Shown here piece by piece: positions 20,203 to 36,185 of a stretch of 64,000 nucleotides of DNA. A program made the translations under genes and the position numbers. Below the pieces are notes generated by a model. The model was not told the origin of the DNA and searched no databases. It saw only the letters and a program-made list of their open reading frames with translations. Location of the stretch: UHGV virus genome UHGV-1376088; one strand, 5' to 3'. This DNA is from a virus. Position 1 is the first letter of the stretch. Every line of letters begins with the position of its first letter.

Positions 20203-20220
20203 GTGTCGGTGCTTTTATGA
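20203..20220 (+). promoter_or_regulatory. GTGTCGGT-N5-TATGA box
   Basis: Copy 4. Confidence 0.5.
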
Positions 20221-20243
20221 TATAAATATTTGTGGAGTTTACC

Positions 20244-20561
20244 ATGAAGTATACCGTAAAGTTATTTGATAGCCATGGCAAAGAGACTGAATATGAGGTC
20301 TCTAGTCTTGACATCGAAACCATTAAGAAAGAGATTGGTTTCGGTGAAGAAGAAGTTGCTATGGCTAAAACTTATATAGATGGGAAGATTGTTTCTACTT
20401 TCCATCTTGGTCAGGATTGGCAATATTATGTAACATATGAATTTATTGATGGGTTGACAGACTCTGATGTAATCTATGTTGTAGAGGGCCAAAATCCTGT
20501 GGCAATCGCAAAACGTGATATGCCGTTCTTAGCCCACGATGTAGACGTTGAAATTCTGTAA
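20244..20561 (+). CDS. small early protein (MKY...)
   Basis: TGGAG RBS; 105 aa. Confidence 0.55.
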   Translation: MKYTVKLFDSHGKETEYEVSSLDIETIKKEIGFGEEEVAMAKTYIDGKIVSTFHLGQDWQYYVTYEFIDGLTDSDVIYVVEGQNPVAIAKRDMPFLAHDVDVEIL

Positions 20562-20581
20562 CCTATGGGGCCGATGTGTTT

Positions 20582-20600
20582 GTGTCGGTCTTTTTACGAG
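20582..20600 (+). promoter_or_regulatory. GTGTCGGT-N6-TACGA box
   Basis: Copy 5. The upstream sequence GGCCGAT pairs with GTCGGTC. Confidence 0.5.
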
Positions 20601-20640
20601 GGACATGTTGTCCGAATCTAACCACAATGGAGTGTAAATC

Positions 20641-21000
20641 ATGAAAATCAAGATCGAATTTGCTAAAAAAGAAGTTAAAGCTTTGCAATCTGCGGCTCAG
20701 TCTTTCCGCGACCGTGAAGACGAGTTCAATGCAATGGTAGGTTTGCAAAATAGCCAGCCGGCAACCATCAACAAGAACACCGTTTACTGGGAGAAATCTC
20801 AGAACGAAGACGGCAATGTTGAAGTGTCCTTAGAAATCAACAAAGACTGGGCCGTTAAGGTTATCGATATTTGGACAGAAAACTTCAATGCCGTAATGAA
20901 CTTTGTGTTCGCGGTTACCCCAGCAATTGCATTGTTTGCAGGCCGCATGAAGAAATCTAGCTCTAAACTCAACTCTGTTGTAAAAGAGCTGGTTGAGTAA
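20641..21000 (+). CDS. small early protein
   Basis: 119 aa; GGAG RBS. Confidence 0.55.
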   Translation: MKIKIEFAKKEVKALQSAAQSFRDREDEFNAMVGLQNSQPATINKNTVYWEKSQNEDGNVEVSLEINKDWAVKVIDIWTENFNAVMNFVFAVTPAIALFAGRMKKSSSKLNSVVKELVE

Positions 21001-21027
21001 CGCCATAATGGCCGGCACCCCTTAAAG

Positions 21028-21045
21028 GTGTCGGTTATTTTACGA
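21028..21045 (+). promoter_or_regulatory. GTGTCGGT-N5-TACGA box
   Basis: Copy 6; hairpin GGCCGGCACC/GGTGTCGG. Confidence 0.55.
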
Positions 21046-21077
21046 CAATATTTTAACAGCCTTTTATGGAGATAATC

Positions 21078-21374
21078 ATGGCTAAAAAGAACCCTTCTAT
21101 TAACCGCTTTTTGAAACAAATCAGACACTGGGCATACGGCAAGACCGTAGTGTTGAAATCCAGCGTTGGCAAGTTAGAAGCTGAATGGGTTGATATGTAT
21201 GAACATTCGTCCGACAAGAAAATGGACGAAAGTTTAAGCTCTCTGAGCTTCACTAAAATCTATGTTTGTGACACTTCTTTGCCTATGGGGCAGAATGTTA
21301 CAATCTATGAGCTTGAAGATGGAAAATATGTCCACAAGGGTACTACTTATGACCCTTACTTTGAGCTCGTTTAA
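21078..21374 (+). CDS. small early protein
   Basis: 98 aa; TGGAG RBS. Confidence 0.55.
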   Translation: MAKKNPSINRFLKQIRHWAYGKTVVLKSSVGKLEAEWVDMYEHSSDKKMDESLSSLSFTKIYVCDTSLPMGQNVTIYELEDGKYVHKGTTYDPYFELV

Positions 21375-21403
21375 ATAAAAGTTACCGGCACCGATTAGTT
21401 TTG

Positions 21404-21421
21404 GTGTCGGTTCTTTTGTGG
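21404..21421 (+). promoter_or_regulatory. GTGTCGGT-N5-TGTGG box
   Basis: Copy 7; hairpin ACCGGCACC/GGTGTCGGT. Confidence 0.55.
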
Positions 21422-21450
21422 AAAGGCATGTTGCCTTGTTGGAGTCCAAA

Positions 21451-22443
21451 ATGGAAATCAAATCCCAAAAGCAGGCAAAGAAAGTCCTGCTTCAATTGCA
21501 AGGGGAGCTTCATAAGTTGGAGCTCCAATATCAGAAACTCAATGGCATTCATAAAAACGCCGTTGAAAAGAAAATTACAGAGACCGCCGCGCTTTGGATG
21601 TCGGTCTTGGGTGAAGCCACACATAAAGGCTTCGTGGAAAATAATGGTGTTACGGTCACCATCTCTGGAACCGAGCTCAAAAATCCAGAGAAAATTGGAC
21701 CAGTTACATTGTCTGTGTTTAAACGCGCAGAAGAGCTGTCCAAAACCGAACCGGGGCCTGAAATCGAAATCAAGCCCGAACCCCAATCTGAAACTTTAGC
21801 TAAAGGAAATATCATCATGACTCAAAATACTCAAACTATCGCTCAAATTATTGCCGGTGCAGAAGCAAAATTCGCAAATATCGACAAGTTCAATGTTGCC
21901 GTGGAGGACATTAAGTCCGAAATGTTGGCATTTGAGGGTGACGAAGTGACCCCAGAACTGTTGAAGAATGTGGGAGAATACCTCACCGCGCTGGTTAAAT
22001 ATAACCGAACCACTGACGCAACAGGTGTCTCCACACTGACCGCCGAAAAAGCAGCGTTGAATGAAGCTGCTAACCAGTTCTATGAGGGACTGGGTGAAGT
22101 AGACGAAGAAACGTCTGCGAAATTCAGCAAGTTGCTGTCCGATATCGTCAAAAATACTGACGAAGAAGACAAAGAGGGTTGGACCCATAAGATTTGGGTT
22201 GGTTGCAAAACTGGCGGCTCGTTCGTATTGGACTTGGCCAAAGGTTTGGTTATGTACATCTATGGCGGTGTAATCAAAATCCTTGGTACAGTTCGTGATA
22301 TTGCCGGCTATACCTTAGGTAAAATGCTGTCTATCTTGGACGCAGCAACTACTAAAGACTTTGGACGCAAGTCTAAAGAGGGTGTTATTATGCGTGCAAT
22401 GAAAGAACACGTAGAGGAAGCCAATGCAGCAGCGGCAGCCTGA
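21451..22443 (+). CDS. hypothetical early protein (330 aa; possible internal start at 21817)
   Basis: GGAG RBS at 21441. Codon bias strengthens after 21817, where a second RBS and ATG occur in frame. Confidence 0.55.
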   Translation: MEIKSQKQAKKVLLQLQGELHKLELQYQKLNGIHKNAVEKKITETAALWMSVLGEATHKGFVENNGVTVTISGTELKNPEKIGPVTLSVFKRAEELSKTEPGPEIEIKPEPQSETLAKGNIIMTQNTQTIAQIIAGAEAKFANIDKFNVAVEDIKSEMLAFEGDEVTPELLKNVGEYLTALVKYNRTTDATGVSTLTAEKAALNEAANQFYEGLGEVDEETSAKFSKLLSDIVKNTDEEDKEGWTHKIWVGCKTGGSFVLDLAKGLVMYIYGGVIKILGTVRDIAGYTLGKMLSILDAATTKDFGRKSKEGVIMRAMKEHVEEANAAAAA

Positions 22444-22723
22444 TAAAATCTACTGTGACGCTCGGTTCGTGGGCGGTAATCGATGGGCTATTGGTTACTG
22501 CTCACTAAATATGGGTGTCAATGGATATAAAATAATTAAGGCTTCTGACAATAATGTAGCCGAACTGGAAGCAATTCGCTTTGCTAAGCAATCTAATCCA
22601 GGTTCTATTATATTGTCTGATAGTCTTAATAGTGTAACTGCGCTTAATGACCCTAGTGTAGCTTACATTGAACGTTCACTTAACTTTGCAGACTCATATT
22701 TGCGAAATGTCCGAGTGAAATAA
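22424..22723 (+). CDS. truncated RNase H-like domain protein (N-terminal half only)
   Basis: The motifs CDARF (Asp), NNVAELEAIRFA (Glu) and ILSDSLNSV (Asp) match the first three RNase HI blocks. The C-terminal His/Asp block is absent. Confidence 0.45.
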   Translation: MQQRQPDKIYCDARFVGGNRWAIGYCSLNMGVNGYKIIKASDNNVAELEAIRFAKQSNPGSIILSDSLNSVTALNDPSVAYIERSLNFADSYLRNVRVK

Positions 22724-22749
22724 CGGACACCGGCGCGGCAGAAATTGTC

Positions 22750-22767
22750 GTGTCGGTGTTTTTATGA
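22750..22767 (+). promoter_or_regulatory. GTGTCGGT-N5-TATGA box
   Basis: Copy 8. It is the 3' arm of a 13-bp stem (CACCGGCGCGGCA/TGTCGTGTCGGTG, with G-U pairs). Confidence 0.55.
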
Positions 22768-22861
22768 GGGATAGAGCCAACCTCAATAAAAAACAGCTCT
22801 ACGGTCTGAATCTTGACCAAAAGAATCTCAATTTTCAATCAACCTTAAAAGGAAAAATATC

Positions 22862-24241
22862 ATGACTATGAATCAAATCGAAACTGGCAACCTGAACACC
22901 GGCCGTAGCAAATTCCACAGCGTTTCTGGCCAAGTTGCAACTCCAATGGCATCAAGCCGCCGCACCTTTTACGTCTTGGACGCTCGTCCAGATGAAGCAG
23001 AAGCATTGGGCTATCGTGTATTCGTGTACAAACTGATGCATATGATTGCAAATGCCCCTATGTCTCGCGGTAATGGCCGTGCTTGCTGGGTAGCTACCAA
23101 TGCCGACGATGGTGTGCAATACACTGAAGGTATGACTACGAACCAAATCGTAGCAGCCGTCCGTAATGCAAATGCCAATGCAATGGAATTCTTGGACGCT
23201 GGTTTCAACGGTCTGAGCATCCAAAACGGCAAATTGGCACACTTCCCGGTACCAGTAGGTCCAGCATTTGGTCCAGAATGGTATGAGAAAGCAAACGGTT
23301 TGGCACTGAAAGCTCTGAGTCTGTCTAAAGGCTACGAAGCTTTGTTGTCTGGCTCTGCGTTCATCAGCCACGACAAGAACATTGTTACCGCCAACGAAAA
23401 AGACGGCGAGCGTGTTCAGTTCACCGAACAACAGCTGGCCGAAATGATGGCCAAGATTGTAGGTGCATACAAAGCCGAAATCAAACGCCTCGTTGACGCA
23501 GGTGCAATCGCCACTTCGACTGCTATCTATGTTGGTGCAAACGGCCTGAGCCCTTGTATTGTCCCAATTGCAGCAGCCAGCTACAAAGTAAATAGCAACG
23601 GCAAGCAAATTGACGTCCGTACTACACCTCGTGCATACGGCCGTGTCTCTCCAAACTTCTGTCTGACTATTACTGGTCAAGCCGAAATCACCACTTTGGA
23701 GCAAGACGAATTGCATGAAGGCTATTTGGCTGGTGTCCAAGTGACTGAGGGTAACAATCCTACCCAATACTGCCGCAAGTTCGTGAACTTCAAGGACAGC
23801 CGTGGCAACGATATTACTGTACGTGCAGTAATGTACAGCAACGGTAATAACGGCCGTGGACAAACCCGCGCCGAAGCCTTTGAAAATGTCAGCACCAACG
23901 CCGATGAAATCATGTTCACCGAGAACAATGTGTTAGGCTTTGAAAGCCGCACTCCTCGTGAAGACGATGAAACCGGTCAACCATGGGTAGTTACAGCACG
24001 TGTAACCATGGACGGTTATATTGTTAGCCGTAACGAAGCAGGTAGCACTGCTGTTGTTGCAGACATTGACGTTGACGCACTCGATGTAGACGGTCTGGAC
24101 TTGGGCGACGTGGACATCTTCGCAGATACTGCTAAAGTAGAAGCTGAGAAACCTGCTGCAGCCAAAGAAACCAAACGCACTCGTCGTGGTCAAGCTCAAC
24201 AAGCTCCGGCTAACGAAGAGAGCGACGATACTCCGTTCTAA
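22862..24241 (+). CDS. abundant early protein with SSB-like acidic C-terminal tip (...ESDDTPF)
   Basis: 459 aa with highly optimised codons. The C-terminal DD-T-PF resembles the SSB partner-binding tip. Candidate ssDNA-binding or replication-factory protein. Confidence 0.75.
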   Translation: MTMNQIETGNLNTGRSKFHSVSGQVATPMASSRRTFYVLDARPDEAEALGYRVFVYKLMHMIANAPMSRGNGRACWVATNADDGVQYTEGMTTNQIVAAVRNANANAMEFLDAGFNGLSIQNGKLAHFPVPVGPAFGPEWYEKANGLALKALSLSKGYEALLSGSAFISHDKNIVTANEKDGERVQFTEQQLAEMMAKIVGAYKAEIKRLVDAGAIATSTAIYVGANGLSPCIVPIAAASYKVNSNGKQIDVRTTPRAYGRVSPNFCLTITGQAEITTLEQDELHEGYLAGVQVTEGNNPTQYCRKFVNFKDSRGNDITVRAVMYSNGNNGRGQTRAEAFENVSTNADEIMFTENNVLGFESRTPREDDETGQPWVVTARVTMDGYIVSRNEAGSTAVVADIDVDALDVDGLDLGDVDIFADTAKVEAEKPAAAKETKRTRRGQAQQAPANEESDDTPF

Positions 24242-24355
24242 TAGAGCCAGATACGGGCGAGCGTAAGCGAGCCCCTATTTGAAGTCCACTTGAATGCTGG
24301 TGTGCATGTATTTGTGCACCAGTATTTTTTGTCTTTTATGACTGGTTGACGTGTT

Positions 24356-24375
24356 GTGTCGGTCCCTTTTTATAG
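24356..24375 (+). promoter_or_regulatory. GTGTCGGT-N7-TATAG box
   Basis: Copy 9, in the ORF-free region. Confidence 0.4.
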
Positions 24376-24491
24376 GGATTTAGCTTTCAAATGATTGACT
24401 GGTTGACTGTGTTTTTGATGTGTATACGGACATACAATATAGACGGGCGCGGCTATCTTTGTGCTGGATAACAGCCCAAACAGCTATAATA

Positions 24492-24509
24492 GTGTCGGTT
24501 ATACTACGG
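24492..24509 (+). promoter_or_regulatory. GTGTCGGT-N5-TACGG box
   Basis: Copy 10, in the ORF-free region. Confidence 0.4.
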
Positions 24510-25011
24510 TACGTGTAATATATTAATGAACAGCTTAAAACGTTTTATATGGCTAAGGGAGCAACCTTATCTAAGTTGTTGATTTATATAGATACAGGAT
24601 ATTCGTTCAAAAGTAAACAATAGGCTAAAATTAAGCCTAAAATAGAGGTATCTAGCGCCGCAGAAAGGCTAATATAGGCAAGAATCATAGCAATAGAGCT
24701 TATATAATAGATAGTATAAGCTAAAATAGGTCTATAATGGACATATAGGCATATAATAGAGGCATGTAATATATTAATAATAGGCCCAGATGTGCTTTAT
24801 ATTCCTTGGGAGCATTTTATACTAAGTCCTTGATTTATATAGAGGCAAGATATTTGTTCAGGAATGAACAATAGGCTAAAATATGGTCCGATTTAAGCAA
24901 AAATATACAATATAACCGTAAAAATAGGTCATTTTGCATGAAAAGTGGCTTCAAATGAGAATAATTCCTAAAGTATCATTTTCTCCTATAGCGGATACCG
25001 ACCTCTGAAAA

Positions 25012-25029
25012 GTGTCGGTTATTTTACGG
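25012..25029 (+). promoter_or_regulatory. GTGTCGGT-N5-TACGG box
   Basis: Copy 11. Confidence 0.4.
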
Positions 25030-25969
25030 TGAATATAGTCTAAGCAGTCAATATAGACAGTAATAGACGGTCAATATAGACAGGACGGGCGCGTCCTTGT
25101 ATTGATTAAAAGCATAAATAACACCAATAAAACCACCAATACAAACATCACAAGCACAAACAATAATACTACTACAATAGGTAATACAATACATACTATA
25201 TACAAGTATAGCAGGTATAATAAGCACAAATCCAATGCAACTATATAGGCTAAGGTGTATCTATATGTGCATAAGATACGGGCTGTAGTCCAGGTACCGC
25301 AGACTATATTAAGTGCATTCATCTATTATTGTCTCTATTGGTCAAATCTTAGAGACAAGGGTTTGATGGACTGGACTTCCAGGTAATTTAGCCTATATTG
25401 TTGTAATACGGTCCGTATTTTAGGTAATGCAGTCTATATTAAAATGTCTAGACCTGTAAACAAGTGTCCAGACGTATATTTGGTTTATATAAGTGCAAAC
25501 CTATAAATAGGTGTCTAAGTTCTTATTAATAGTTATATCTGTATTAGAGTCTATATTGGTACTTATGTATTTGTGTGCATAAGTTCTTATATGTTCTTTA
25601 TGCTTCTATTGGTATATTTGTTTTTTATTGTATTGGATTCTATTCTATTTTTATTTTATATGGGAGTGTATTTGTATTTATGGTTGAGTCTATTTTGTTT
25701 TGGTTTGTTGTTTATTTTTTAGTTGTTATATTCTTTATGTTTGTATTTGCTTTTAAGGATTGTTCTGATGAATGAATATGGTTGGGTTGTTGCTTTTGTT
25801 GTTTGTATTTTGTTTATTATTGCTTTTATGGATGTTTGATTTTTGCATCTATCTTTGTTTTTGAAGTTTTTTATTTTGGTTATTTTGGCCAATAAAAGAA
25901 TAATGGGCCCGGCGGGCCTTGTTTTATGTTGCACTAACCGTTTTTAAGCCCCTATGAAAAATCGATTTA

Positions 25970-25987
25970 GTGTCGGTTTTTCTATGG
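25970..25987 (+). promoter_or_regulatory. GTGTCGGT-N5-TATGG box
   Basis: Copy 12, about 25 bp upstream of the 26011 gene. Confidence 0.5.
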
Positions 25988-26010
25988 TAAATATTATATA
26001 GGGAGTTATC

Positions 26011-26352
26011 ATGATTTCTATGATATTGTTTGGCTCTGCTATTACTTCTTTAGCTATATTGTCTATTCTTGCTAAGAGTAATGTAGACCTTTTATATAAG
26101 GTTTTGGGTTATGAAGCCTATGTAGATCTTTGTTTTTCCTTGATTATTGGTTTTGCTTGTGGTATTAGTGGTACTATGTCCGGCTTTGTTATCGGCGCGG
26201 CGACCGGTCTTATCTTTGGTACTTGCCTGTTCCTTCTGAAGAAGATGATCGGCTATAAAAAGTATGAAAATAAGACTTGGGTTTACTATCCTGCTAAGTG
26301 GCCTATTGGTGATTTATTCAAAAATATGTATTCTAAGTATGAATACATCTAA
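26011..26352 (+). CDS. membrane protein
   Basis: 113 aa with 3 predicted TM helices. Confidence 0.5.
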   Translation: MISMILFGSAITSLAILSILAKSNVDLLYKVLGYEAYVDLCFSLIIGFACGISGTMSGFVIGAATGLIFGTCLFLLKKMIGYKKYENKTWVYYPAKWPIGDLFKNMYSKYEYI

Positions 26353-26468
26353 ATGGCTATTTATTAAAGCCTTATTACGCAGGCATTATTATTTATGTCA
26401 TTTTTGCTATTACGATTCTTGTTTGAATAGCTAAAATTGATCATTATAGTTATTTTGGAGTTACATTT

Positions 26469-26744
26469 ATGGGCTTTTTAAAATCTCGTTTTAATCTTAT
26501 TGCGGCGCGTCTGTTCTACAATAAACAGGGGCGTCTTTCAATATTTAAGGTTTGTGCTGTATTAGGCATCTCTGCTGTCTGCTTTGTGTATAATGCAACA
26601 TTTGCATCCCTTGTAACAGGATTAGTGGTATTGATCGGATGTGTCTGGGTTATTACTCCTGTAGTAACATCTCTGTTTCCTAGTTTTGGAGACGAAGAGT
26701 GTGAAGTAATTGAATCCGAAACTGTTGATCCTTACACCAACTAG
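26469..26744 (+). CDS. membrane protein
   Basis: 91 aa with 2 TM helices. Confidence 0.5.
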   Translation: MGFLKSRFNLIAARLFYNKQGRLSIFKVCAVLGISAVCFVYNATFASLVTGLVVLIGCVWVITPVVTSLFPSFGDEECEVIESETVDPYTN

Positions 26745-26755
26745 GGAGGTTCCAA

Positions 26756-27238
26756 ATGGTTCCTTTGAATCTGTTTTCTACCTTGTTTAATCCCTCTTTA
26801 GAGTCCCTTGATTGGGACTCTGATTTAGGGAAAGAATGTATTTCTGCTGCTGAAGACTTTATTGATCAATTAGCTAATGCGGATTCTATTCGATCTCTTC
26901 GTGGCGATCCTATTTTTGATTCTATGATGGAATATGCTTCTAAGAATTATGACGCAAAAACCCTTTATGGTAATCTTAATTGGTTCTTAACGGATCTTGA
27001 GCAGAACCTCGCAATTCCATTGCACATTGACAGAATAAGTGATAATAAGGGTGATCCATACATCCGATATACATTTATGTCTGTCAAAATGCCGTATGTT
27101 ATTTCCTGGGTGCGTAATTTTCATGATCGACTGTATGTTAGTATTCATACCCCTAAGTTTATTAGTGGTGTAGAGATGAACATTTGTCGCAATGGTGAAA
27201 TCATAAAGGAAGAGCCATATGCTGGGATTCTTGTTTGA
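26756..27238 (+). CDS. hypothetical protein
   Basis: 160 aa; GGAGG RBS. Confidence 0.5.
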   Translation: MVPLNLFSTLFNPSLESLDWDSDLGKECISAAEDFIDQLANADSIRSLRGDPIFDSMMEYASKNYDAKTLYGNLNWFLTDLEQNLAIPLHIDRISDNKGDPYIRYTFMSVKMPYVISWVRNFHDRLYVSIHTPKFISGVEMNICRNGEIIKEEPYAGILV

Positions 27239-27248
27239 CCTTGTAAAA

Positions 27249-27395
27249 ATGGCAGCGTTCTTGCCTGTATTATTAGTTGGCGCGGTATGCTTCATGTTTT
27301 ATTTGGTAGCTGTTTGCATCTTTACGTTACCTGTTATTGCGGCATATTTAGTGCAAAGGTTATTTGCCGGCTGTATTAATGCTTTAAAGGCTTAG
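27249..27395 (+). CDS. small membrane peptide (48 aa)
   Basis: Hydrophobic ORF below the ORF-track cutoff. Confidence 0.25.
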   Translation: MAAFLPVLLVGAVCFMFYLVAVCIFTLPVIAAYLVQRLFAGCINALKA

Positions 27396-27406
27396 AAAGG
27401 CTTATC

Positions 27407-27685
27407 ATGTTCGTATTCGGAAGCGTATGGGACTACTTCGTTTATAACGCCATCACAAATCATTCTACAGGAATCTTATATATTATCTTCCTTGCAGTAT
27501 ATATAGGATTTATCCTTGCAAATTTAAATAAATACGTCTTTAAAATCAAGTATCTGCGTAAATTGGAAAGAAGCGGGCCGTTTCATGTTTTGCTGTTCTT
27601 CATTTCTGTTTTATTAGCTCACTTTGCAACTATTTACACAGGAAAGACCGTAGTTTATTTAATAGAAAAATTCCAGCTTTACTGA
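27407..27685 (+). CDS. membrane protein
   Basis: 92 aa. Confidence 0.45.
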   Translation: MFVFGSVWDYFVYNAITNHSTGILYIIFLAVYIGFILANLNKYVFKIKYLRKLERSGPFHVLLFFISVLLAHFATIYTGKTVVYLIEKFQLY

Positions 27686-27718
27686 AAGCTTTGCATTTTG
27701 GAAAACCGATATTATAAA

Positions 27719-27737
27719 GTGTCGGTTTTCTTTTGGA
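27719..27737 (+). promoter_or_regulatory. GTGTCGGT box variant
   Basis: Copy 13. The upstream sequence AAACCGAT pairs with GTCGGTTT. Confidence 0.45.
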
Positions 27738-27764
27738 TGTTTTAATGTTTATGAAAGGTAAACA

Positions 27765-28202
27765 GTGGATACTAAGATTTTTGATTATGGCGAGTATTAT
27801 TATATCGTAAAGTATAAGCTCCAAACTGGAGAGATTCGCTATGCTATGTTTAAAGAAGATGCGCCAGAAGAATATTGCCTCGAATTAATTACAGATATCA
27901 GCGGACCTATTGAATCTTTTGAATTTATTTATGTTGAAGATACCCTCAAAGATCTTCCCCCTGATAATTATGAAGACGGTTGTGATATTGCGGATATCTT
28001 TGTTGTCGAAGCAATTAATAATGGCATCAAAGAGGGTGCCATAGTGAGTTTCGGCGAATATGAAGGCTCTCGTAAATTCTATAAAGTGTATCTGAAAGGC
28101 GAATTGCCAGATACGGACGAGAAGTTAACGGTCGTTAACCTTGAAGAGTGGCATAAAGCGCATCTCGAATGGCTTGACAGCTTTAATCCTACGTATCGAT
28201 AA
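27765..28202 (+). CDS. hypothetical acidic protein
   Basis: 145 aa. Confidence 0.55.
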   Translation: MDTKIFDYGEYYYIVKYKLQTGEIRYAMFKEDAPEEYCLELITDISGPIESFEFIYVEDTLKDLPPDNYEDGCDIADIFVVEAINNGIKEGAIVSFGEYEGSRKFYKVYLKGELPDTDEKLTVVNLEEWHKAHLEWLDSFNPTYR

Positions 28203-28431
28203 ATATATCTGACGCCCTTTAGATAGGGTGTCTGTATATTAATGGAGCAATAAGAGCTCCTTCCTAGTATGATTCGACGCTAGACGTTGAATGGAGCCAA
28301 TGATTTAGTCACAAAGGCTAGTAGCTGAAATGCTATTTCTGACTTGGGATGACGACCCGCCCCTGTGAATGTGTCTGACTCTTGCCTGCGGAGTATAAAC
28401 GCAGGCATCCTATTTTATCACGAGGTTCAAT

Positions 28432-28686
28432 ATGACCAGTATCGATATTGTTTTTATATATATTATAATCTTAATTGCAGTTTATATTTTTGGAGCTACA
28501 TTTATTGTACGTTCATACCCTTCAAATTCTATGAATTTAGAAGAAGAACATCGCATTAAGATTTTAGACTCTCAATTAGATATGCTATTAATTGTGGCTT
28601 CGGCCTGGCCTGTAGCATTGGTAATTGTCCCTATTTATTTTATTATTAAAGGCTTAAAATCTGTAATTTACAGACTAATACGCTAA
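28432..28686 (+). CDS. membrane protein
   Basis: 84 aa with 2 TM helices. Confidence 0.45.
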   Translation: MTSIDIVFIYIIILIAVYIFGATFIVRSYPSNSMNLEEEHRIKILDSQLDMLLIVASAWPVALVIVPIYFIIKGLKSVIYRLIR

Positions 28687-28714
28687 TTGTTGATCAAAAG
28701 AAAGGTACTTTATA

Positions 28715-29158
28715 GTGAAACCGTTTAATCATGAAGAGGCCTTAAAGGGCAAATTGTGCAAGACCGCCGGCGGAGATTTGGCAATTGTATACGGAGATAC
28801 ATTAAACTCTCCGTATCTCAAAAATAAACCATATAGAGTTTTAATTGGAGTTGTTATTAACCGTACTGGCCATATTATTACAACCTCATGGAAATTAGAT
28901 GGTTCGTTTGGTATGGACCCATCAAATAATGATATTTTGGGAATCCTTGAAGATCATGAAGTAAGGGCGATTGAAAACTTGCAATTGTTAGAAAATGCAA
29001 TGCGGGACAATAAATATGTCCAATGGTATGAATCCGGCATTAATGGTCCAATTGCGGTAGAAAAGAAACTTGAAAATGGCAATTTCATTTTGGGTTTTGG
29101 CAAATGGAAATATGAAACCAATGGCGGAGGTTTGATAAATCTTCATATTGTAAAATAA
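28715..29158 (+). CDS. hypothetical protein (GTG start)
   Basis: 147 aa; AAAGGTA RBS. Confidence 0.5.
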   Translation: MKPFNHEEALKGKLCKTAGGDLAIVYGDTLNSPYLKNKPYRVLIGVVINRTGHIITTSWKLDGSFGMDPSNNDILGILEDHEVRAIENLQLLENAMRDNKYVQWYESGINGPIAVEKKLENGNFILGFGKWKYETNGGGLINLHIVK

Positions 29159-29168
29159 ACAAAAGATA

Positions 29169-29190
29169 AGTGTCGGCAAATTGTCGGTAA
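29169..29190 (+). promoter_or_regulatory. degenerate duplicated box (GTGTCGGC..TTGTCGGT)
   Basis: Copy 14, upstream of the NADAR gene. Confidence 0.35.
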
Positions 29191-29210
29191 AATAGACATT
29201 GGAGTAAGTT

Positions 29211-29714
29211 ATGCAATTAAAAAACAATATGCGTTATACTGATAATATGGTAACGTTCTTTACCGGCGGTGCACCGTTTAGCAATTTTTACTTTAGCCCA
29301 CTTGTGTATAAAGGCTACAATGTAAAGACTGCTGAGCAGGCATTTATGATTGAAAAAGCTATTACATTTGGTGATGAAAGCAAAATTCTGCCTATTGTTC
29401 AGGCTAGATCAGCGGCAGAAGCCAAAAAAGTGGGCCGGGCGGTACGAAATTTCGATCCTAAAGTGTGGGACGAAAAACGTTATGGAGTTATGGTTGATAT
29501 TCTGAAAATCAAATTCCAAAATCCTACATTGAAAGAAATTCTTTTGAGAACCGATAATCTTGAACTGGTTGAAGGCTCTCCATATGATGCAATTTGGGGC
29601 GTCAAATTGGACTGGTTGAGTGATGAAATTCTTGACCGTAACAATTGGCGCGGCCGCAATCTTCTTGGTAAGGCACTCATGGAAGTAAGAGAGTATTACC
29701 GTAATCAAATCTAA
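29211..29714 (+). CDS. NADAR/YbiA-family N-glycosidase (ADP-ribose-processing; candidate anti-DarT)
   Basis: FFTGGAPFSNFYFSP, AEQAFMIEKA, a GR segment and a C-terminal WG..LDW...NWRGRNLLGKALMEVRE all align with the E. coli YbiA/NADAR blocks. Confidence 0.75.
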   Translation: MQLKNNMRYTDNMVTFFTGGAPFSNFYFSPLVYKGYNVKTAEQAFMIEKAITFGDESKILPIVQARSAAEAKKVGRAVRNFDPKVWDEKRYGVMVDILKIKFQNPTLKEILLRTDNLELVEGSPYDAIWGVKLDWLSDEILDRNNWRGRNLLGKALMEVREYYRNQI

Positions 29715-29726
29715 ATGGAGTAAATT

Positions 29727-30074
29727 ATGCAAATTAATAAAAAAGTATCTTTCGTATTAGCTACACTGTTAGCCGTATCTGCTCTTTCAGCCTGTGATAA
29801 GGTTGACGAATCATCTCGGGTATATCTGAATACCGATCATTGGATTCAGGTTGGCACTGGTAAAAGCGGCACAACTTACCAGGAATGTGTAAACGACCTC
29901 GTGCCGGGCAAAGAGCCTAAAGTTTTGTGTCGCCCAATCACAAAAAGCACATTCGAAGATATGAATTTTCAACATATCAATAAAGCAATTGAAGCCTCAA
30001 ATTCAAAGGGATCTAAAATCCCTAAAGCAGTAACTGCGTTGGAACAGTTGCCGGACTATAAGGCTTCAGAGTGA
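29727..30074 (+). CDS. lipoprotein (lipobox LSAC)
   Basis: Signal peptide plus Cys lipobox. Candidate superinfection-exclusion or surface protein. Confidence 0.6.
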   Translation: MQINKKVSFVLATLLAVSALSACDKVDESSRVYLNTDHWIQVGTGKSGTTYQECVNDLVPGKEPKVLCRPITKSTFEDMNFQHINKAIEASNSKGSKIPKAVTALEQLPDYKASE

Positions 30075-30469
30075 TGAAATCGGCAAATCAGAAATTCAAT
30101 GAGAAGTTCCTTAAACATATTCATTCGTTTGAAGAGCTTCTCAGAGATATGAAATTCAATAAAAACAGGATGTTAAATCGACGCGCAGCCGGCATTAAGG
30201 AAGAAATCAAAGTTAAAGACTTGATTCGTCCAAGCATTGTCTGTGGCCATAAAGGTGATATTGAAGAAAATACAAGAATCAATGAGAAGATTCTGCTTAA
30301 CTATTATCATCAAGCACATGAGCATCGTATTCCTTTGTATGGCGAAACTCAGATTATTACTAGAATTTATTCTGATTGTTATATCACAAAACGACTCATC
30401 GGCCGAGTTAAATATTATGCCCGGATCATGAAAGAAATATCTGCGATTATTGACATTGCAGATGATTAA
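30071..30469 (+). CDS. hypothetical protein
   Basis: 132 aa, stop-start overlap. Confidence 0.5.
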   Translation: MMKSANQKFNEKFLKHIHSFEELLRDMKFNKNRMLNRRAAGIKEEIKVKDLIRPSIVCGHKGDIEENTRINEKILLNYYHQAHEHRIPLYGETQIITRIYSDCYITKRLIGRVKYYARIMKEISAIIDIADD

Positions 30470-30492
30470 CATCTAAAATAACGGAGGCAATC

Positions 30493-30597
30493 ATGCTAGT
30501 ATTATTTGCATTAACAGTACGGAAATTATTGGCATTTTTGTCTTCCGTTAAACAGAAAAGTAAAAATAAGTTGGTGAAGATTCAAAACCACCTTTAA
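30493..30597 (+). CDS. small membrane peptide (34 aa)
   Basis: Strong ACGGAGG RBS. Confidence 0.3.
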   Translation: MLVLFALTVRKLLAFLSSVKQKSKNKLVKIQNHL

Positions 30598-30613
30598 GGG
30601 AAAGCAACTCATT

Positions 30614-30802
30614 ATGTCTAATAAATTAAAAGAAATTGGTCTTCTTGAGCAATTTCTTTCTGAAGGTGTCTATTATAGTGCAGATGAACTTATCACTGTT
30701 ATAAATGGCATCAAGAGCGAGTTTAACAATGTAACCATAACTCTTGAACCGCATTCCGGCGGGAGTTATATGGTTGTTTACGGAGAGCACAAAGATGAAT
30801 AA
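30614..30802 (+). CDS. hypothetical protein
   Basis: 62 aa. Confidence 0.4.
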   Translation: MSNKLKEIGLLEQFLSEGVYYSADELITVINGIKSEFNNVTITLEPHSGGSYMVVYGEHKDE

Positions 30803-31250
30803 GCAAATCCTTATTGCGGCTCTTTTGTTGGCTGCAAGTTTTAACGTTGAAGCTGCTAAAAAAGAACGCTCTTCTTTGTCTGAAGTAAAAGCATTGGCAA
30901 CCGCTATCCATCATGAAGCCCGTGGCGAGTCATTGGCCGGTAAAAAAGCTGTTGCTAATGTAATCATGAATCGTGTTAAACACAAAGATTTTCCGAATAC
31001 TGTAAACGGTGTAATTGCTCAGCGTGGCCAATTCCAGTGGTATCGTAATAAGAAGTTACGAGCTAAAACTGGCTACGATAAAGAAACTGAAAAAATTGCA
31101 CAGGCCGTTTATTTGGCCCATAAGACGAAACATCATGTTGACAATACCCGGGGAGCTATTTTCTTTTCCTCCAATGGGAAACGACCGGCTCCGCGTGCAA
31201 TTAAGCCATATCGTATTGGCCGACATGTATTTTATAAACTGAAAAGTTAA
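30798..31250 (+). CDS. secreted SleB/CwlJ-family cell-wall hydrolase (Hydrolase_2)
   Basis: Signal peptide followed by AIHHEARGE, VANVIMNRV, FPNTVNGV, GQFQW and RIGRHVFY blocks. Confidence 0.7.
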   Translation, partial: NKQILIAALLLAASFNVEAAKKERSSLSEVKALATAIHHEARGESLAGKKAVANVIMNRVKHKDFPNTVNGVIAQRGQFQWYRNKKLRAKTGYDKETEKIAQAVYLAHKTKHHVDNTRGAIFFSSNGKRPAPRAIKPYRIGRHVFYKLKS

Positions 31251-31319
31251 ATCAAAATAAGGTGTCATTGATATAAAAGTAATGACATTAACCAAGATAT
31301 TTTTAAAGGATAAAAAATT

Positions 31320-31703
31320 ATGCGTTCACCTAACGTACTCTATAAGGCCTATTCAAAGTTGGGTTTGGCTGTTGCACAAGAATTAACATTCTCTGCGCCG
31401 ACTGATAAAGAATTCCGAGAATTCGTTGAATCTCAATTGGCAGAAGTTGACCGTATGGTCTTGACCCGTGAAGATATTCGCTCAATTGCGGATATGAGTG
31501 ATGAAGATCTGAAAGATTTGGGTTGTAATATTCTTCTGACTAAAGAAGGTAAACGCATTGCAGAATTGCCATCACATATTCGCCGCTTGGCTGAACCCGA
31601 TACAATTTATGATATCGGTACAATCGAAATCGAAGATGAAGATTTCGGTAAACGTGAATTCAAAATCACTGGTGTATTTCTGAATGGCGAAAATGCCTTT
31701 TGA
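31320..31703 (+). CDS. hypothetical acidic protein
   Basis: 127 aa. Confidence 0.5.
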   Translation: MRSPNVLYKAYSKLGLAVAQELTFSAPTDKEFREFVESQLAEVDRMVLTREDIRSIADMSDEDLKDLGCNILLTKEGKRIAELPSHIRRLAEPDTIYDIGTIEIEDEDFGKREFKITGVFLNGENAF

Positions 31704-31719
31704 TTAATAAAACAAGTTT

Positions 31720-32190
31720 GTGTGGCAAATGTGTTCTGGACGGTTTATCCGGCAGGGCGGCATTTGGCGCATTAATCGTAAGTCGTTAAATAACAGTGGC
31801 CCTGTTCGTATTGACTACACGATATGCCCATAGTGGCAGGCGATAAATCAGACTATTTTTGTATACTGTCGGATATATCAGTATCGCCTTTAGCCTTTCT
31901 CTCCCGTGAACCGAGCGCAATACGCCTTTCCATACAGTTCCTTACGCGTTCACCTGGCGCTCGGAGCGGGCCCCATTCATAAGTGTATGAAATTAGTGCA
32001 CATGGTTTCAGGATCATCCATAACTCCGAAAAATCCTGACATGATACCTTTCTTGACAGCTTGTAGTCGACGGTCTACATTCGCAGGGACGACGGAAAGA
32101 CGGCACCCTAAACTCCAATCGTGGTTAGTGATAAGGAAGAGGCCTCGGCATCGAAAGGTGTCGAAGCTAATTTCTTTATTCGAAGTTATT
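31720..32190. other. GC-rich (about 50%) ORF-poor island with extensive internal complementarity; candidate structured ncRNA
   Basis: CCGAGCGC pairs with GCGCTCGG and GTGAAC with GTTCAC. GC is well above the flanking sequence. The only ORF here is Arg-rich and judged spurious. Confidence 0.35.
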
Positions 32191-32209
32191 TTATAGAGAG
32201 GTTTATATA

Positions 32210-32401
32210 ATGGTTATTTGTATTTGTAATAATATTAATGATAAAACTATTACTGATTTAGCTGCTAATGGTGCATGCGTTGAAACTATTAAAAATGAAA
32301 CTGGTGCTACCACTTGTTGTGGCTGCTGTCACGAAATGCTTTGTTCCTTGGTCTCAAAGTACAAGGAATCAACGGAGGGAAAGTCGTATGCGATCAAATA
32401 G
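32210..32401 (+). CDS. BFD-like [2Fe-2S]-binding domain protein
   Basis: ICICNNINDKTI...TGATTCCGCC matches the Bfd C-x-C...C-x2-C pattern. Confidence 0.55.
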   Translation: MVICICNNINDKTITDLAANGACVETIKNETGATTCCGCCHEMLCSLVSKYKESTEGKSYAIK

Positions 32402-32527
32402 AGGAAGATATCCCTATAGCTATGCAAGAATAAAGTTTCTTACAGACCGCTTAAAATTGGTTATGAAAGCCATTCAAAAGCGTGTTGATAAAATGAAAAA
32501 AGAATAACCTGGCCGGCGCTCGAAAGA

Positions 32528-32545
32528 GTGTCGGTCTTTTCGTGG
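32528..32545 (+). promoter_or_regulatory. GTGTCGGT-N5-CGTGG box
   Basis: Copy 15. Confidence 0.45.
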
Positions 32546-32572
32546 TAAATTTTGAGATTTTGGAGTATTAAG

Positions 32573-32665
32573 ATGTTTAAAGAGACGCCTAGGTTTGTAT
32601 TAGAGGCTTTTATGATTGCCATTATCGGCGCAATTGTGCTTTGTGCTATTGCTGGCCTTCAATAA
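32573..32665 (+). CDS. small membrane peptide (30 aa)
   Basis: GGAG RBS; hydrophobic. Confidence 0.3.
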   Translation: MFKETPRFVLEAFMIAIIGAIVLCAIAGLQ

Positions 32666-32691
32666 GAATAGAATGACCGACATTAGAAACT

Positions 32692-32709
32692 GTGTCGGTT
32701 GATTTATGG
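32692..32709 (+). promoter_or_regulatory. GTGTCGGT-N5-TATGG box
   Basis: Copy 16. A perfect 7-bp stem ACCGACA/TGTCGGT lies directly upstream of P2. Confidence 0.55.
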
Positions 32710-32741: not shown

Positions 32742-35700
32742 ATGCATTTAAGAATTTCAAATGGACAAATTCCTGTAATCAATAAAAATTATACACCATC
32801 AGAAGTCTATGCAATCTTTCGAGAGCATTTGACAACAGAGGGACGTATTGAATTTGAATTGAAGCCAGATACTTTTGGATTCAAAGTGATCAACGTTATT
32901 AATGATAAGACTGTTGAAACGGAATTTATTATTCCTGAATCGTTCTTTAATCCTAAGAATCATTGGCCTCATTTTGCTTTCTGTTCGCGTCATATCAATA
33001 AACGGGCGTCAATCGAAGTAATTAACCATTTTGAAATGCTGTTCTTCTTCTTGGCTGAACGATTTGAAGATGCCTTGAAGAACAATGAAATCTTTACGAC
33101 TTATATCCGCCGGGACATTAAGCTGATTACAAACTTTGTTGAGTATGTCAGCCCCAATGCTTTTAATGCAAATTTGAAGTCTTCTAACCTTTTGGTTTTA
33201 TGGGCTCCTTATAGCACCAATACCGGCACTTCTTTGGTTTATAAGAATCGCAATCTTCCTATTGGCGATTTGGTACACCAGCGTGTAATTACAAGCCCTG
33301 ATAAAGAAGCTATTACTGCTATGGCGAATTGCTTCAACTTAATGCCTGGTTCAGAAACTATGTTGTCTGAAAGCAATAAAATTGTTGTTTCAGATGGTAA
33401 TGCAGAAATTTCTTGTGCTGGCTTTGGGTTTGAATATGATAACGATGACCGTATCGTTGGCTTCTCGTCTATCTTTCCTCGGGCTTCTGCTTTGCCTGCC
33501 CGTTTGAAAACCCATGTAAATGGTAACCATTTTGGTGTATTACAACCCGCCAAACCTTTGTTTATTGAAGATGCGGCTATCAATCCAGATGGCTCTTTTG
33601 TCTTTGATGAAAATGGCGACCATGTTCCTTTGGACAATGGCGGCTTAGACGCTATTGTTGTTTATCAGGATATCGATTTTGAAAGCTATCATCAAGTCGG
33701 CGGCGACTTAGAAGTAAACCGTCGAATTGGTAATCAAATCGTATTTATGAATCGCCATAAGGAAACGGAATTTGACGAAATCCTTGTCGAAGAGGGCGAA
33801 ACATACAACGCAAGAAATGGATGTGTAATCCTGGGCATGTTTGACCGTCGACCGATTTCGGTAGACAATGTTGTCAAAATTGAAGTAACCAAAGTTTCTC
33901 AGAACGGTTATAACAATTCTGCCCGTATTGATTTCGTAGCATACTATAAAGTAGGTAATTCTCGAATCACTTCTCATACCGGCTTAAAAGGCGTCACCAA
34001 AACCATGATGACTTGTGGTAATATCTACTCCGATGATTTCGAAATGGAAGTCGATATTCTTACAGGTGTCAATAGTATTAAGGCCAAAGAGAATACTGTA
34101 CGTCTTATGCAAGCAGCTTTTGCATTAAAGTATGGTTATTATACTCCTACGTCTGGTGATAAGCTTCTTTCGTCTATGGACGAGGAAGAAATTAATGCCG
34201 CCGCCCGATCTATTCCAGAAGTAACATTCAAAATGGTTCGTGAGGGCAAGGAAGTCGAGTTCAAAACCCGACTGTATGGTGTGATTCAAATCAACTATAC
34301 CGAAATCGGTAGTCACTTTACAGTTGTAAGAAATCAAAAATTGAGCTTCAATGCTTTGCGTTATATCTCTCAGACTAAAGATTCTGGATTGGCGCAATAT
34401 ATATTGGACAATTGTATTGACCCAGATGAAAAATCAGCTGTAATTGAGCTGATGAAGTGTCTTAATGATAAGACGCGCCGTTTTGTGTCTGCTGAGCATA
34501 AACCTGTTTATACATTAAGCGGTTTAAAGAATCATTTCACTGAAAAGGATTTGATTCTTGAACATAGTTCTATCTTCCCATTGTACTCTAAGCTTCTTGA
34601 TGAAGACTTTAATAAAGGCTTCTATATCAATCTTAGTGAACAGCGTCAGAATACATTAGTACGTATTCCAGATGCTAAAACTTTGGGTATGTTCTGCAGT
34701 AAGCAAACCAATGGCGAATATGTCTATCCTGGCATTCTTATTGAGGTTTCTAAAATCATTCAGAATGCTTTGCTTGGTAAGGCTTATTACTATCGGATTA
34801 TTCCGAGTCGTAATGAGAGCAACCAAAACCGTGTAAGCACTTATGGCAATTATATGGCATCCTTGAAGTCTATGTTGTATTCTTCAGAGATTTCAGGACA
34901 GACACTGATTCAGACTATGATTACACCACGATTGCGCGGCGTAAATATGAAACAAATGCACGACGTATACGTCCCAGATGGCGTTGTCGTTGTATTGAAC
35001 AATCGTATTTATACCGACTTGCATGAATATGTCTATCCAACCAAAAACTTGCCGGTTGAACAAGGCATTATTCAAGCCTTTAAAGACCTGTATGCGTTCA
35101 CATTACGTTCACCGTTTTTGTGGAAAACGCAACTGTTGATTAAAGAATTGTGGGACGCAAACAAATTCGACACTTATCTTAAGCAAGAATATGGTTTTGC
35201 GCTGGAAGATTATCTGGACATCAAATCCAATTTACATTGTGCATTGATTGGCAAGGACGTAATCAAAGGCAGCCATTCCGATATTGACGGCGACTTGTTG
35301 CAGATTACCGTATTGCCAGAAGAAGCTCAGCAAATGATGAAGGAATTCAAACTTAGCAACATTACCGATAAGATGTACCAGTGGGATGAAGATTTCTTGC
35401 AGTCAGAATACGATAGCATTAAGAAATTGGATTGGACTAAGAAGTATAAGTTGCACTATACTCCTACCTACTGTAAGCGTCCCGGCGATGAAAGCTACAT
35501 CGATTTGATCACAAACTCTGCTAATGCCAAGAAGGCCGTTGGTCCAGGTACCAACAACAGCTGGCAATTTGGTATGCTGATTGAACTTTATTTGGCACTG
35601 CTGAATGAAGATTCTGATCTTACCTATCGCGCTATTTCCGGTAAAACAGGAAAAGAATTTGTTAAGATTCATCTTAATGAAAAGCTTGCCCAAGAGTGTG

Positions 35701-36185
35701 ACCATGTATATACCGAAACCAATGAACGGTATGTGATTAATGCCATCAAGCATATTAAGGGCGGTGCAACTCAACATCAGAAGTTTATGTTGGGTACTCT
35801 TGGTTCTGACCAAACAGTCCATAAAGAAGTAGTAGAAGCGATTGTGAATGAAATGGGATATAGCCGAGAAACAGCTATGACCATTATCAATATTGCTATT
35901 TGGGCTGATCAACACAATCTTATTAAGCTTACTGGAGATTTCCTTCGTATGCATAATAAAGGTCAAACTGTTGATAACAATGGCGAACCTATTGACTTGA
36001 AAGACCCTGAAATCTCTAAATGGTTTAACCTGATTGTAGAGAAAACATTTGTGGGCAAAATGATTAAGCCCGCATTTGATGTATACAATCAGTGTATTGG
36101 TCAACTTGATATCGAGCAAAAAGCATCAGATAGCCAAAACAATGCGGCAGAAGACAAAGAAGATATTGATATCGATTTCCTTTAA
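32742..36185 (+). CDS. giant protein P2 (1147 aa) with SHSDIDGD motif; paralog of 15137-18547
   Basis: Single ORF with AT-rich codons. It shares SH.S..DxDGD.L and VG.G.TNN with P1. Confidence 0.85.
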   Translation: MHLRISNGQIPVINKNYTPSEVYAIFREHLTTEGRIEFELKPDTFGFKVINVINDKTVETEFIIPESFFNPKNHWPHFAFCSRHINKRASIEVINHFEMLFFFLAERFEDALKNNEIFTTYIRRDIKLITNFVEYVSPNAFNANLKSSNLLVLWAPYSTNTGTSLVYKNRNLPIGDLVHQRVITSPDKEAITAMANCFNLMPGSETMLSESNKIVVSDGNAEISCAGFGFEYDNDDRIVGFSSIFPRASALPARLKTHVNGNHFGVLQPAKPLFIEDAAINPDGSFVFDENGDHVPLDNGGLDAIVVYQDIDFESYHQVGGDLEVNRRIGNQIVFMNRHKETEFDEILVEEGETYNARNGCVILGMFDRRPISVDNVVKIEVTKVSQNGYNNSARIDFVAYYKVGNSRITSHTGLKGVTKTMMTCGNIYSDDFEMEVDILTGVNSIKAKENTVRLMQAAFALKYGYYTPTSGDKLLSSMDEEEINAAARSIPEVTFKMVREGKEVEFKTRLYGVIQINYTEIGSHFTVVRNQKLSFNALRYISQTKDSGLAQYILDNCIDPDEKSAVIELMKCLNDKTRRFVSAEHKPVYTLSGLKNHFTEKDLILEHSSIFPLYSKLLDEDFNKGFYINLSEQRQNTLVRIPDAKTLGMFCSKQTNGEYVYPGILIEVSKIIQNALLGKAYYYRIIPSRNESNQNRVSTYGNYMASLKSMLYSSEISGQTLIQTMITPRLRGVNMKQMHDVYVPDGVVVVLNNRIYTDLHEYVYPTKNLPVEQGIIQAFKDLYAFTLRSPFLWKTQLLIKELWDANKFDTYLKQEYGFALEDYLDIKSNLHCALIGKDVIKGSHSDIDGDLLQITVLPEEAQQMMKEFKLSNITDKMYQWDEDFLQSEYDSIKKLDWTKKYKLHYTPTYCKRPGDESYIDLITNSANAKKAVGPGTNNSWQFGMLIELYLALLNEDSDLTYRAISGKTGKEFVKIHLNEKLAQECDHVYTETNERYVINAIKHIKGGATQHQKFMLGTLGSDQTVHKEVVEAIVNEMGYSRETAMTIINIAIWADQHNLIKLTGDFLRMHNKGQTVDNNGEPIDLKDPEISKWFNLIVEKTFVGKMIKPAFDVYNQCIGQLDIEQKASDSQNNAAEDKEDIDIDFL

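Follow-up and report, generated by a model that had tools for sequence, protein, structure and literature searches.

The stretch of DNA analyzed here (the window) covers 64 kb of a roughly 185-kb phage genome, UHGV virus genome UHGV-1376088, and carries two genes for giant proteins, named P1 and P2. From P1 to P2 lie about 14 kb of small genes, about 40 of early type, which are punctuated by short hairpin cassettes. In an earlier note on this DNA, the two proteins were proposed to be distant paralogs and candidate divergent two-barrel RNA polymerases (RNAPs), based on two shared sequence motifs. Both open reading frames (ORFs) were confirmed in position, strand and length (Table 1), and the peptides quoted for them were found verbatim, SHMSNRDDADGDRL (831-844) and AAKTGVGSETNNLI (910-923) in P1, SHSDIDGDLL (844-853) and AKKAVGPGTNNSW (929-941) in P2. 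The motif definitions held in part. DxDGD is present in both proteins, but the preceding SH-x-S does not apply to P2, which reads SH-S-DxDGD (DIDGD), and VG-x-G-TNN does not apply to P1, which reads VG-S-E-TNN. The order of the two blocks was correct, and the distance from DxDGD to TNN was 77 amino acids (aa) for P1 and 86 aa for P2 instead of the about 95 aa given for both.

Database searches and conserved residues of the two families

Neither protein was matched in Pfam, PHROGs or NCBIfam, and phmmer and profile searches of PDB sequences with P1 and P2 yielded noise or zero matches. Megablast against phages returned nothing for either. When 50,697 phage genomes were searched by tblastn, P2 matched only Acinetobacter phage vB_AbaM_ME3 (ME3) and a fragment in PBAB25, and P1 and two of its distant relatives matched none. 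The P2 family in 5.8 billion proteins consisted of 20 clusters, none carrying a protein name, and a profile search with its alignment gained no further members. The P1 profile retrieved 9 proteins from 1.84 billion cluster representatives, five of them long distant relatives. The contigs that carry relatives of P1 or P2 were about 170-188 kb. No description of the family was found in literature searches. In a survey of jumbo phages, ME3 was placed in group 2.2 and two-barrel RNAPs were reported for group 1 and two phages of group 3 only, and the available part of a census of viruses that have at least two RNAPs (PMC10770324) contained no DIDGD, DADGD or "Bacteriophage sp." entries. The P1/P2 family is a sequence orphan that is modelled by no library used here and was overlooked in earlier surveys; no match to an unrelated family was found.

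Family alignments were built from 19 sequences for P2 (identity down to 26%) and from 9 members for P1, including the five distant relatives at 19-30% identity. Among the motif elements of the earlier note, only DxDGD and AK..G were invariant across each family; "SH" was not conserved, and the TNN position was variable (TNN, TNA, TFN or THN). The conserved blocks of the P2 family were G-x-x-R408-I-x-S411-x-x-G414-x-K416-G-V-T-K, K447-x-K449-x-N, R789-x-P791, S-D847-x-D849-G-D851-L and A-K-x-x-V/T-G934. The invariant residues of the P1 family were R379, S382 and K387 (MRVVSFHHLKGV), K413, K786 and P788, D838, D840, G841 and D842, and K912 and G916, and their order and internal spacing, which became visible once the distant relatives were added, were the same as in P2. 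Two of the shared elements had been absent from the earlier note, the R/K-x-P motif and a beta-like motif (P2 RITSHTGLKGV, 408-418; P1 RVVSFHHLKGV, 379-389).

Paralogy of P1 and P2

BLASTP of P1 against P2 showed no significant similarity. The profile built from the close P1 homologs (identity at least 71%) was shallow and was aligned to the P2 family by hhalign with an E-value of 0.002. After the distant P1 relatives were added, the alignment reached a probability of 95.4% and an E-value of 1.7e-8 over 223 columns (P2 744-1019 with P1 760-975), and the N-terminal barrel motif, P1 R379..K387 with P2 R408..K416, was recovered in a separate alignment (E 2e-4). Together with the colinear motifs, this comparison supported the distant paralogy that had been proposed. 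The similarity between P1 and P2 far exceeded that of either protein to gp96 and gp64 of Thermus phage P23-45 or to E. coli beta', so that the closest relative detectable for each is the other, which fits an ancient duplication. A coincidence of motifs in two large proteins of unrelated origin, for example structural or tail proteins, is extremely unlikely. The failure of BLASTP and the lack of family-database matches would fit such a coincidence, but the profile alignment, four colinear motifs with identical internal spacing, the template-free recovery of an RNAP fold and the conserved synteny described below would not.

Predicted fold

The AlphaFold2 model of P2, computed without templates, had a predicted local distance difference test score (pLDDT) of 83.6 and a predicted template-modelling score (pTM) of 0.79. 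The double-psi beta-barrel (DPBB) conjectured in the earlier note was recovered in this model, as a two-barrel fold with one barrel of beta/Rpb2 type and one of beta'/Rpb1 type. In structural comparison, the model scored 11.8 with plastid beta, 11.4 with RPA135, 10.9 with subunit 2 of Pol IV/V and 10.8 with Xanthomonas beta among beta/Rpb2-type chains, and 11.2 with RPA1, 11.0 with M. tuberculosis beta' and 11.0 with RPB1 among beta'/Rpb1-type chains. For phage enzymes the scores were 11.6 (phiKZ non-virion RNAP, nvRNAP), 10.9 (AR9 nvRNAP), 10.8 (P23-45 gp96), 10.3 over 562 residues (crAss gp66) and 9.6 (P74 gp62), and for QDE-1 the score was 8.1; isolated DPBB domains ranked below the RNAP chains and QDE-1. 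Since chains of both types were matched, P2 is predicted to hold beta-like and beta'-like modules in one polypeptide. When P2 was compared with predicted viral structures (BFVD) by Foldseek, the products of two ME3 exons, named "uncharacterized", came first (E 2e-46 and 2e-9), followed by viral RNAPs. The model of P1 was poor because its alignment held only 9 sequences, and its N-terminal 290 residues were unstructured and variable.

Fold and motifs supported the kinship to two-barrel polymerases that had been suggested from the DxDGD loop, but the term "large subunit" was not upheld, as each chain looks like a whole enzyme resembling a beta plus beta' fusion. A two-DPBB core is also common to RNAPs and archaeal PolD (PMC10770324; see also PMC7281927), and P1 and P2 could on that ground be two-barrel DNA polymerases like PolD DP2, which we consider very unlikely.

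Proposed assignment of active-site residues

Eight residues have been defined as universally invariant: the three Asp of DxDGD, Rpb1 R446 and P448, Rpb2 K979 and K987, and Rpb2 D837 (Ruprich-Robert & Thuriaux 2010, PMC2919709). The pattern [RK]xPx{20,100}DxDxD, used for screening by Chaban et al. (PMC10770324), is present in both P1 and P2, with spacings of 49 and 55 aa respectively. In the comparison with E. coli beta', hhalign paired the DxDGD region of the P2 family with SHSDIDGDLLQITVLP-EEAQ (E 0.066 at full length, 0.0011 when restricted to the domain), and the best and only alignment of the P1 family lay at NADFDGD (full-length E 0.16).

For the beta-type barrel, the domain-restricted alignment of P2 placed TSHTGLKGV...VDIL...KAKEN on AGRHGNKGV...VDIV...PSRMN of beta with an E-value of 0.057, which is not significant alone; K416 was aligned with E. 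coli beta K1073, which puts R408 on K1065. The corresponding comparison of P1 with GRHGNKGV put K387 on K1073 (E 0.016, weak). In both proteins the basic residues of the pair (P2 R408/K416, P1 R379/K387) are 8 apart, as in GDKxxxRHGxKG (E. coli K1065/K1073). The P1 and P2 profiles thus independently picked the NADFDGD loop of beta' and the GNKGV loop of beta in the same register, each with a weak E-value. From these sequence comparisons, R408 and K416 are the probable basic pair of the beta-type barrel (DPBB-B). In addition, E324 of P2 was invariant (GGDLE; family consensus GEIE) and is a possible candidate for the MgB ligand, counterpart of Rpb2 D837.

A subset of residues is characteristic of DNA-dependent enzymes, namely the funnel arginine Rpb2 R1020 in PSRM, Rpb1 G750/K752 and the switch-2 lysine (Ruprich-Robert & Thuriaux 2010). 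Within the non-significant hhalign match above, P2 K447-A-K449-E-N (family K-[AG]-K-[EM]-N-T) was aligned with P-S-R-M-N of beta (1104-1108), and no P2 counterparts of the funnel residues on the Rpb1 side or of the switch-2 residue were identified. In an alternative that we consider unlikely, P1 and P2 have the two-barrel fold but are RNA-directed (QDE-1/RDR-like, for example making double-stranded RNA or counter-defence RNAs) or act as a primase for phage DNA replication.

The TNN segment of P2 had been compared in the earlier note with the STNNILSP loop of beta'. That comparison was set aside: the segment lies within a 37-residue helix of the P2 model (919-955), which makes it more likely, as far as the model goes, to be part of a bridge-helix-like element. 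The equation of AK..G..TNN with the bridge-helix sequence ALKTA(D/N)SGY was also considered and was not supported by hhalign against E. coli.

Table 1. Positions of P1, P2, their putative catalytic elements, the hairpin cassettes and the inserts in P2 homologs (first eleven rows and cassettes, window coordinates; inserts, coordinates of the respective loci)
Feature	Position	Strand	Remarks
P1, candidate single-chain two-barrel RNAP, paralog of P2	15137..18547	+	1136 aa
P1 R379-VVSFHHL-K387-G388, candidate beta-type basic loop (DPBB-B)	16271..16300	+	R379, S382, K387 invariant down to 19% identity
P1 K786-F-P788, putative counterpart of Rpb1 R446-x-P448	17492..17500	+	both residues invariant; 49 aa upstream of DxDGD
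P1 D838-A-D840-G841-D842, candidate Mg2+-binding loop	17648..17662	+	invariant in 9/9 family members
P1 K912-TGVGSETNN-921, AK..G..TNN block	17870..17899	+	K912, G916 invariant; aligns with P2 AKKAVGPGTNN
P2, probable single-chain two-barrel RNAP, N half beta-like, C half beta'-like	32742..36185	+	1147 aa
P2 R408-ITSHTGL-K416-G417, candidate beta-type basic loop (DPBB-B)	33963..33992	+	R408, S411, G414, K416, G417 invariant in 19 sequences; beta hairpin in model
P2 K447-A-K449-E-N451, tentative counterpart of beta PSRMN (funnel arginine)	34080..34094	+	K447 invariant; K449, N451 at least 90% conserved
P2 R789-S-P791, putative counterpart of Rpb1 R446-x-P448	35106..35114	+	at least 90% conserved; 55 aa upstream of DxDGD
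P2 D847-I-D849-G850-D851, candidate Mg2+-binding loop	35280..35294	+	conserved in every family member covering the site
P2 A929-KKAVGPGTNN-939, start of long helix 919-955 (bridge-helix-like)	35526..35558	+	family conservation and model helix
15 GTGTCGGT hairpin/T-run cassettes, candidate regulatory signals	18641..32699	+	putative association with P1/P2
Insert in ME3 P2 homolog	L001:10449-11722		group I intron, Rfam RF00028, 51 bits; annotated endonuclease gene inside
Inserts in L041/L042/L045	about 4364-4779 (to 5568 in L042)		RSPFL site
Inserts in L032/L033	4802-5102		AVG|PGTNN site
Inserts in L043/L044	5207-5579		AVG|PGTNN site
Inserts in L046/L048	5207-6591		AVG|PGTNN site

Interpretation of P1 and P2 as RNA polymerases

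Based on the predicted fold, the conserved motifs and the paralogy, P1 and P2 probably belong to the two-barrel (DPBB) RNAP superfamily, as single-polypeptide enzymes that arose by an ancient duplication and transcribe phage genes. In the proposed mechanism, the N-terminal beta/Rpb2-like barrel would provide the basic pair (P2 R408/K416; P1 R379/K387) that holds the RNA 3' end and the phosphates of the nucleoside triphosphate. The C-terminal beta'/Rpb1-like barrel would provide R/K-x-P (P2 R789/P791; P1 K786/P788) and the DxDGD loop chelating the catalytic Mg2+, and the long bridge-helix-like helix with AK..G..TNN would follow the DxDGD barrel. The synteny of the pair and the intron positions in P2 homologs, both described below, speak for essential genes that work together, and the proposal is also favored by the lack of enrichment of sigma-70-like promoters between 13.5 and 33 kb and of a sigma factor among the ORFs scanned.

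Several points weigh against this interpretation. No statistically significant sequence match ties P1 or P2 to any known RNAP (0 hits in the PDB profile search), and the full-length comparisons with beta' are weak (E 0.066 and 0.16). The full-length comparison with rpoB put the beta loop on P2 201-217 instead (E 0.6), and the first basic position is Arg, whereas the canonical residue is Lys. The superfamily assignment is built on predicted structure and motif logic. Finally, only the P2 type was detectable in ME3-like phages, so that a scheme with two enzymes is not universal.

Synteny and interrupted homologs in related phages

In all 17 IMG/VR contigs whose geometry could be checked, the P1- and P2-type genes shared a strand and the P2 type lay 12-20 kb downstream, one case wrapping around the contig ends, and this arrangement was kept over an identity range of 28-88% for P1 and 45-95% for P2. 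The orthologs of P2 in ME3 are gp152/gp154, annotated as "hypothetical", which were matched by tblastn at 26% identity and a length coverage of 94% (E 7e-55). No P1-type gene was detected in ME3 or in two ME3-like contigs of 230-243 kb. At the locus of one distant P2 homolog (L002), PhoH, Band_7 and NAD-salvage genes were located downstream.

The absence of P1 from ME3-like phages that retain P2, and the poor P1 model with its disordered, variable N-terminus, would agree with an alternative in which only P2 is an active polymerase and the diverged P1 has no catalytic function or an auxiliary one, for instance in ejection, as a virion scaffold or as a partner that regulates P2. The poor model is accounted for by the 9-sequence alignment, and the invariance of R379, K387, K786, P788, D838, D840, G841 and D842 down to 19% identity would not be expected if catalysis had been lost. 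We therefore hold a non-catalytic P1 to be quite unlikely.

P2 homologs were repeatedly interrupted at two hot spots, by inserts of the self-splicing intron type. The first follows residue about 793, inside RSPFL (ME3, L041, L042 and L045), and the second is G934|P935, inside AVG|PGTNN (L032, L033, L043, L044, L046 and L048). An intein reading of these genes was rejected, because the flanking exons are in different frames and the ME3 insert matches the group I intron model; the L041 insert gave a borderline match to group II D1-D4. Homing introns are typically found in essential genes, at the codons conserved best. The interruptions also account for the "truncated" database entries of 900-958 aa.

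The hairpin cassettes between P1 and P2

The density of GTGTCGGT boxes between P1 and P2 reported earlier was confirmed, with 15 copies, all on the plus strand, compared to 0.5 expected, and so was the box directly upstream of P2, as the final copy ends 43 nucleotides (nt) before the P2 ATG. The consensus of 72 unique cassette copies was ttTnGTGTCGGTyyTTTTaTGR. In the cassette, the RNA folds into a strong hairpin (dG -15 to -25 kcal/mol, z -4 to -6) with GTGTCGGT as its 3' arm, and yyTTTTaTGR comes next; the hairpin cassette is tightly conserved (18 nt) and is strand-specific owing to its G.U pairs. Almost all intergenic gaps of the small-gene array contain it, it was also located at the loci L005-L023, L025 and L029-L037, and it was kept downstream of P1 even in phages with a P1 of just 33-34% identity.

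Hairpin-plus-T-run sites numbered 44 between 13.5 and 33 kb compared to 14 expected, and sigma-70-like promoters were not enriched in this region (45 found, 53 expected). The search for a second over-represented 10-mer, as another promoter class, revealed nothing comparable to GTGTCGGT. The TGR past the T-run was 94-97% conserved, and one copy of the cassette lacked the hairpin. As both features exceed what intrinsic termination needs, we infer that the cassettes may act as sequence-specific signals for a phage polymerase, as promoters, as terminators or as units combining the two.

Function of P1 and P2 and comparison with known systems

The most likely function of P1 and P2 would be DNA-dependent transcription of phage genes without the host RNAP. 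Among the ORFs of the window that were scanned, none was recognized as a sigma factor or as another RNAP gene or subunit. The precedents of P23-45, phiKZ and N4 make it probable that P1 and P2 would transcribe genes of different temporal classes. P2 ends the block of small early-type genes and shares the upstream GTGTCGGT cassette, which makes it the better candidate for an early, non-virion enzyme. P1 has no such cassette, its N-terminal 290 aa are variable and poorly ordered, and it opens the plus-strand block beside the packaging genes; of the two, it is the better candidate for an enzyme made late and possibly delivered by the virion. These temporal roles, like the link between the cassettes and P1/P2, are inferred.

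Two single-subunit two-barrel RNAPs are encoded by Thermus phage P23-45, gp96 in the virion, fused to the tape measure protein, and the non-virion gp64 (Chaban et al. 2024, PMC10770324). An architecture with two large DxDGD-bearing paralogs, called unusual in the earlier note, is unusual indeed, but it is not unprecedented, as the P23-45 pair precedes it. The likeness to P23-45 is one of architecture and not of family membership. Residues 1-1200 of gp96 were aligned by hhalign with the P2 and P1 families at the catalytic loop alone (E 0.012 and 0.3), and gp64 gave no relevant alignment with either family. P1 and P2 are each about 1140 aa and not fused to a tape measure, compared to 616 aa for gp64 and a RNAP part of about 1200 aa in the 5002-aa gp96, and they are carried by a myovirus-like/jumbo-related phage of about 185 kb.

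Subunits beta and beta' in multisubunit RNAPs, both cellular and of the phiKZ/AR9 nvRNAP type, together exceed 2700 aa, whereas P1 and P2 are single chains; compared to these enzymes, the first basic Lys is Arg in P1 and P2, and sequence similarity to the trigger loop and bridge helix was not detectable. YonO of B. subtilis SPbeta, gp66 of phi14:2 (a crAss-like phage) and the QDE-1 clade are single-subunit two-barrel RNAPs of the same kind, and in its predicted model P2 is structurally nearer to the multisubunit chains than to QDE-1. The uninterrupted P2 differs from its ME3 ortholog, which is split at the RSP motif by the group I intron. The kind of enzyme is already known, and the P1/P2 family itself is new.

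Single-chain relatives of cellular RNAP are rare and serve as minimal models of the universal active site of transcription, which bears on its early evolution, and the characterised families are few (YonO, crAss gp66, P23-45 gp64/gp96 and QDE-1). If the interpretation is true, P1 and P2 would be the second independent case of duplicated single-chain enzymes in one phage. A "hypothetical" gene of ME3, a cultivable jumbo phage of Acinetobacter baumannii, would be re-annotated, providing a ready experimental system, and a phage lineage of roughly 170-190 kb, represented here by viral metagenome contigs only, would transcribe at least part of its genome independently of host RNAP. As cognate promoter or terminator, the GTGTCGGT hairpin cassette would be a candidate close at hand.

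A more extended proposal is tentative and on balance doubtful. According to it, P1 and P2 form an unrecognised single-chain RNAP family that is structurally closer to multisubunit beta/beta' than to YonO/QDE-1 and has Arg for the first catalytic Lys, and a lineage of about 185 kb outside the phiKZ group is largely free of the host RNAP. One paralog would be delivered with the DNA and would read the hairpin-plus-GTGTCGGTyyTTTTaTGR cassettes as promoters or terminator-promoters of the early array, which ends in the second polymerase gene.

Other features of the window

The window holds a minus-strand block with genes for the large terminase, a lysozyme and a helicase-like protein bearing an intein, and with a HOLDH RNA; P1 opens the plus-strand block. 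Between the two blocks, roughly 1.2 kb (13958-15136) contain no convincing ORF and several hairpin/T-run sites on both strands (e.g. 14703-14736, +), and they may function in divergent regulation or as an origin. The region 12001-24000, which includes P1 and the beginning of the small-gene array, is a compositional island with a GC content of 42-47% compared to 34-39% in the rest of the window; that of P2 is about 39%. Immediately 3' of P2, an rIIA-like gene (GHKL ATPase) and an rIIB-like gene are located (36268-39016, +).

These are followed by genes for a YadA-like adhesin, a BamE-like protein, methionyl-tRNA synthetase (MetRS), an AAA ATPase, a Ro60-like protein, 12 tRNAs, dihydrofolate reductase and DNA ligase. 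The adhesin is a trimeric autotransporter of YadA type with head, stalk and membrane anchor, and together with the BamE-like lipoprotein (39083-41385, +) it points to a diderm, i.e. outer-membrane-bearing, host. The full-length MetRS gene (45249-46913) precedes the tRNA array, in which the 12 tRNA genes (49695-57891, +) are interleaved with the gene of the Ro60-like von Willebrand factor A (vWA) protein (50287-51882), which also matches the PHROG "RNA-binding protein". This region looks like a module for RNA quality control and translation.

In the minus-strand block, the helicase-like protein (7600-8928, -) contains an intein splicing/Hint domain, and an ORF for a TnsA-like endonuclease follows it directly (7088-7603, -); the intein and the TnsA-like ORF are further mobile elements in core genes. 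The HOLDH RNA (Rfam RF02997) was detected at full length at 9663-10027 (-) with 376.7 bits, between the ORFs 7600-8928 (-) and 10273-11124 (+).

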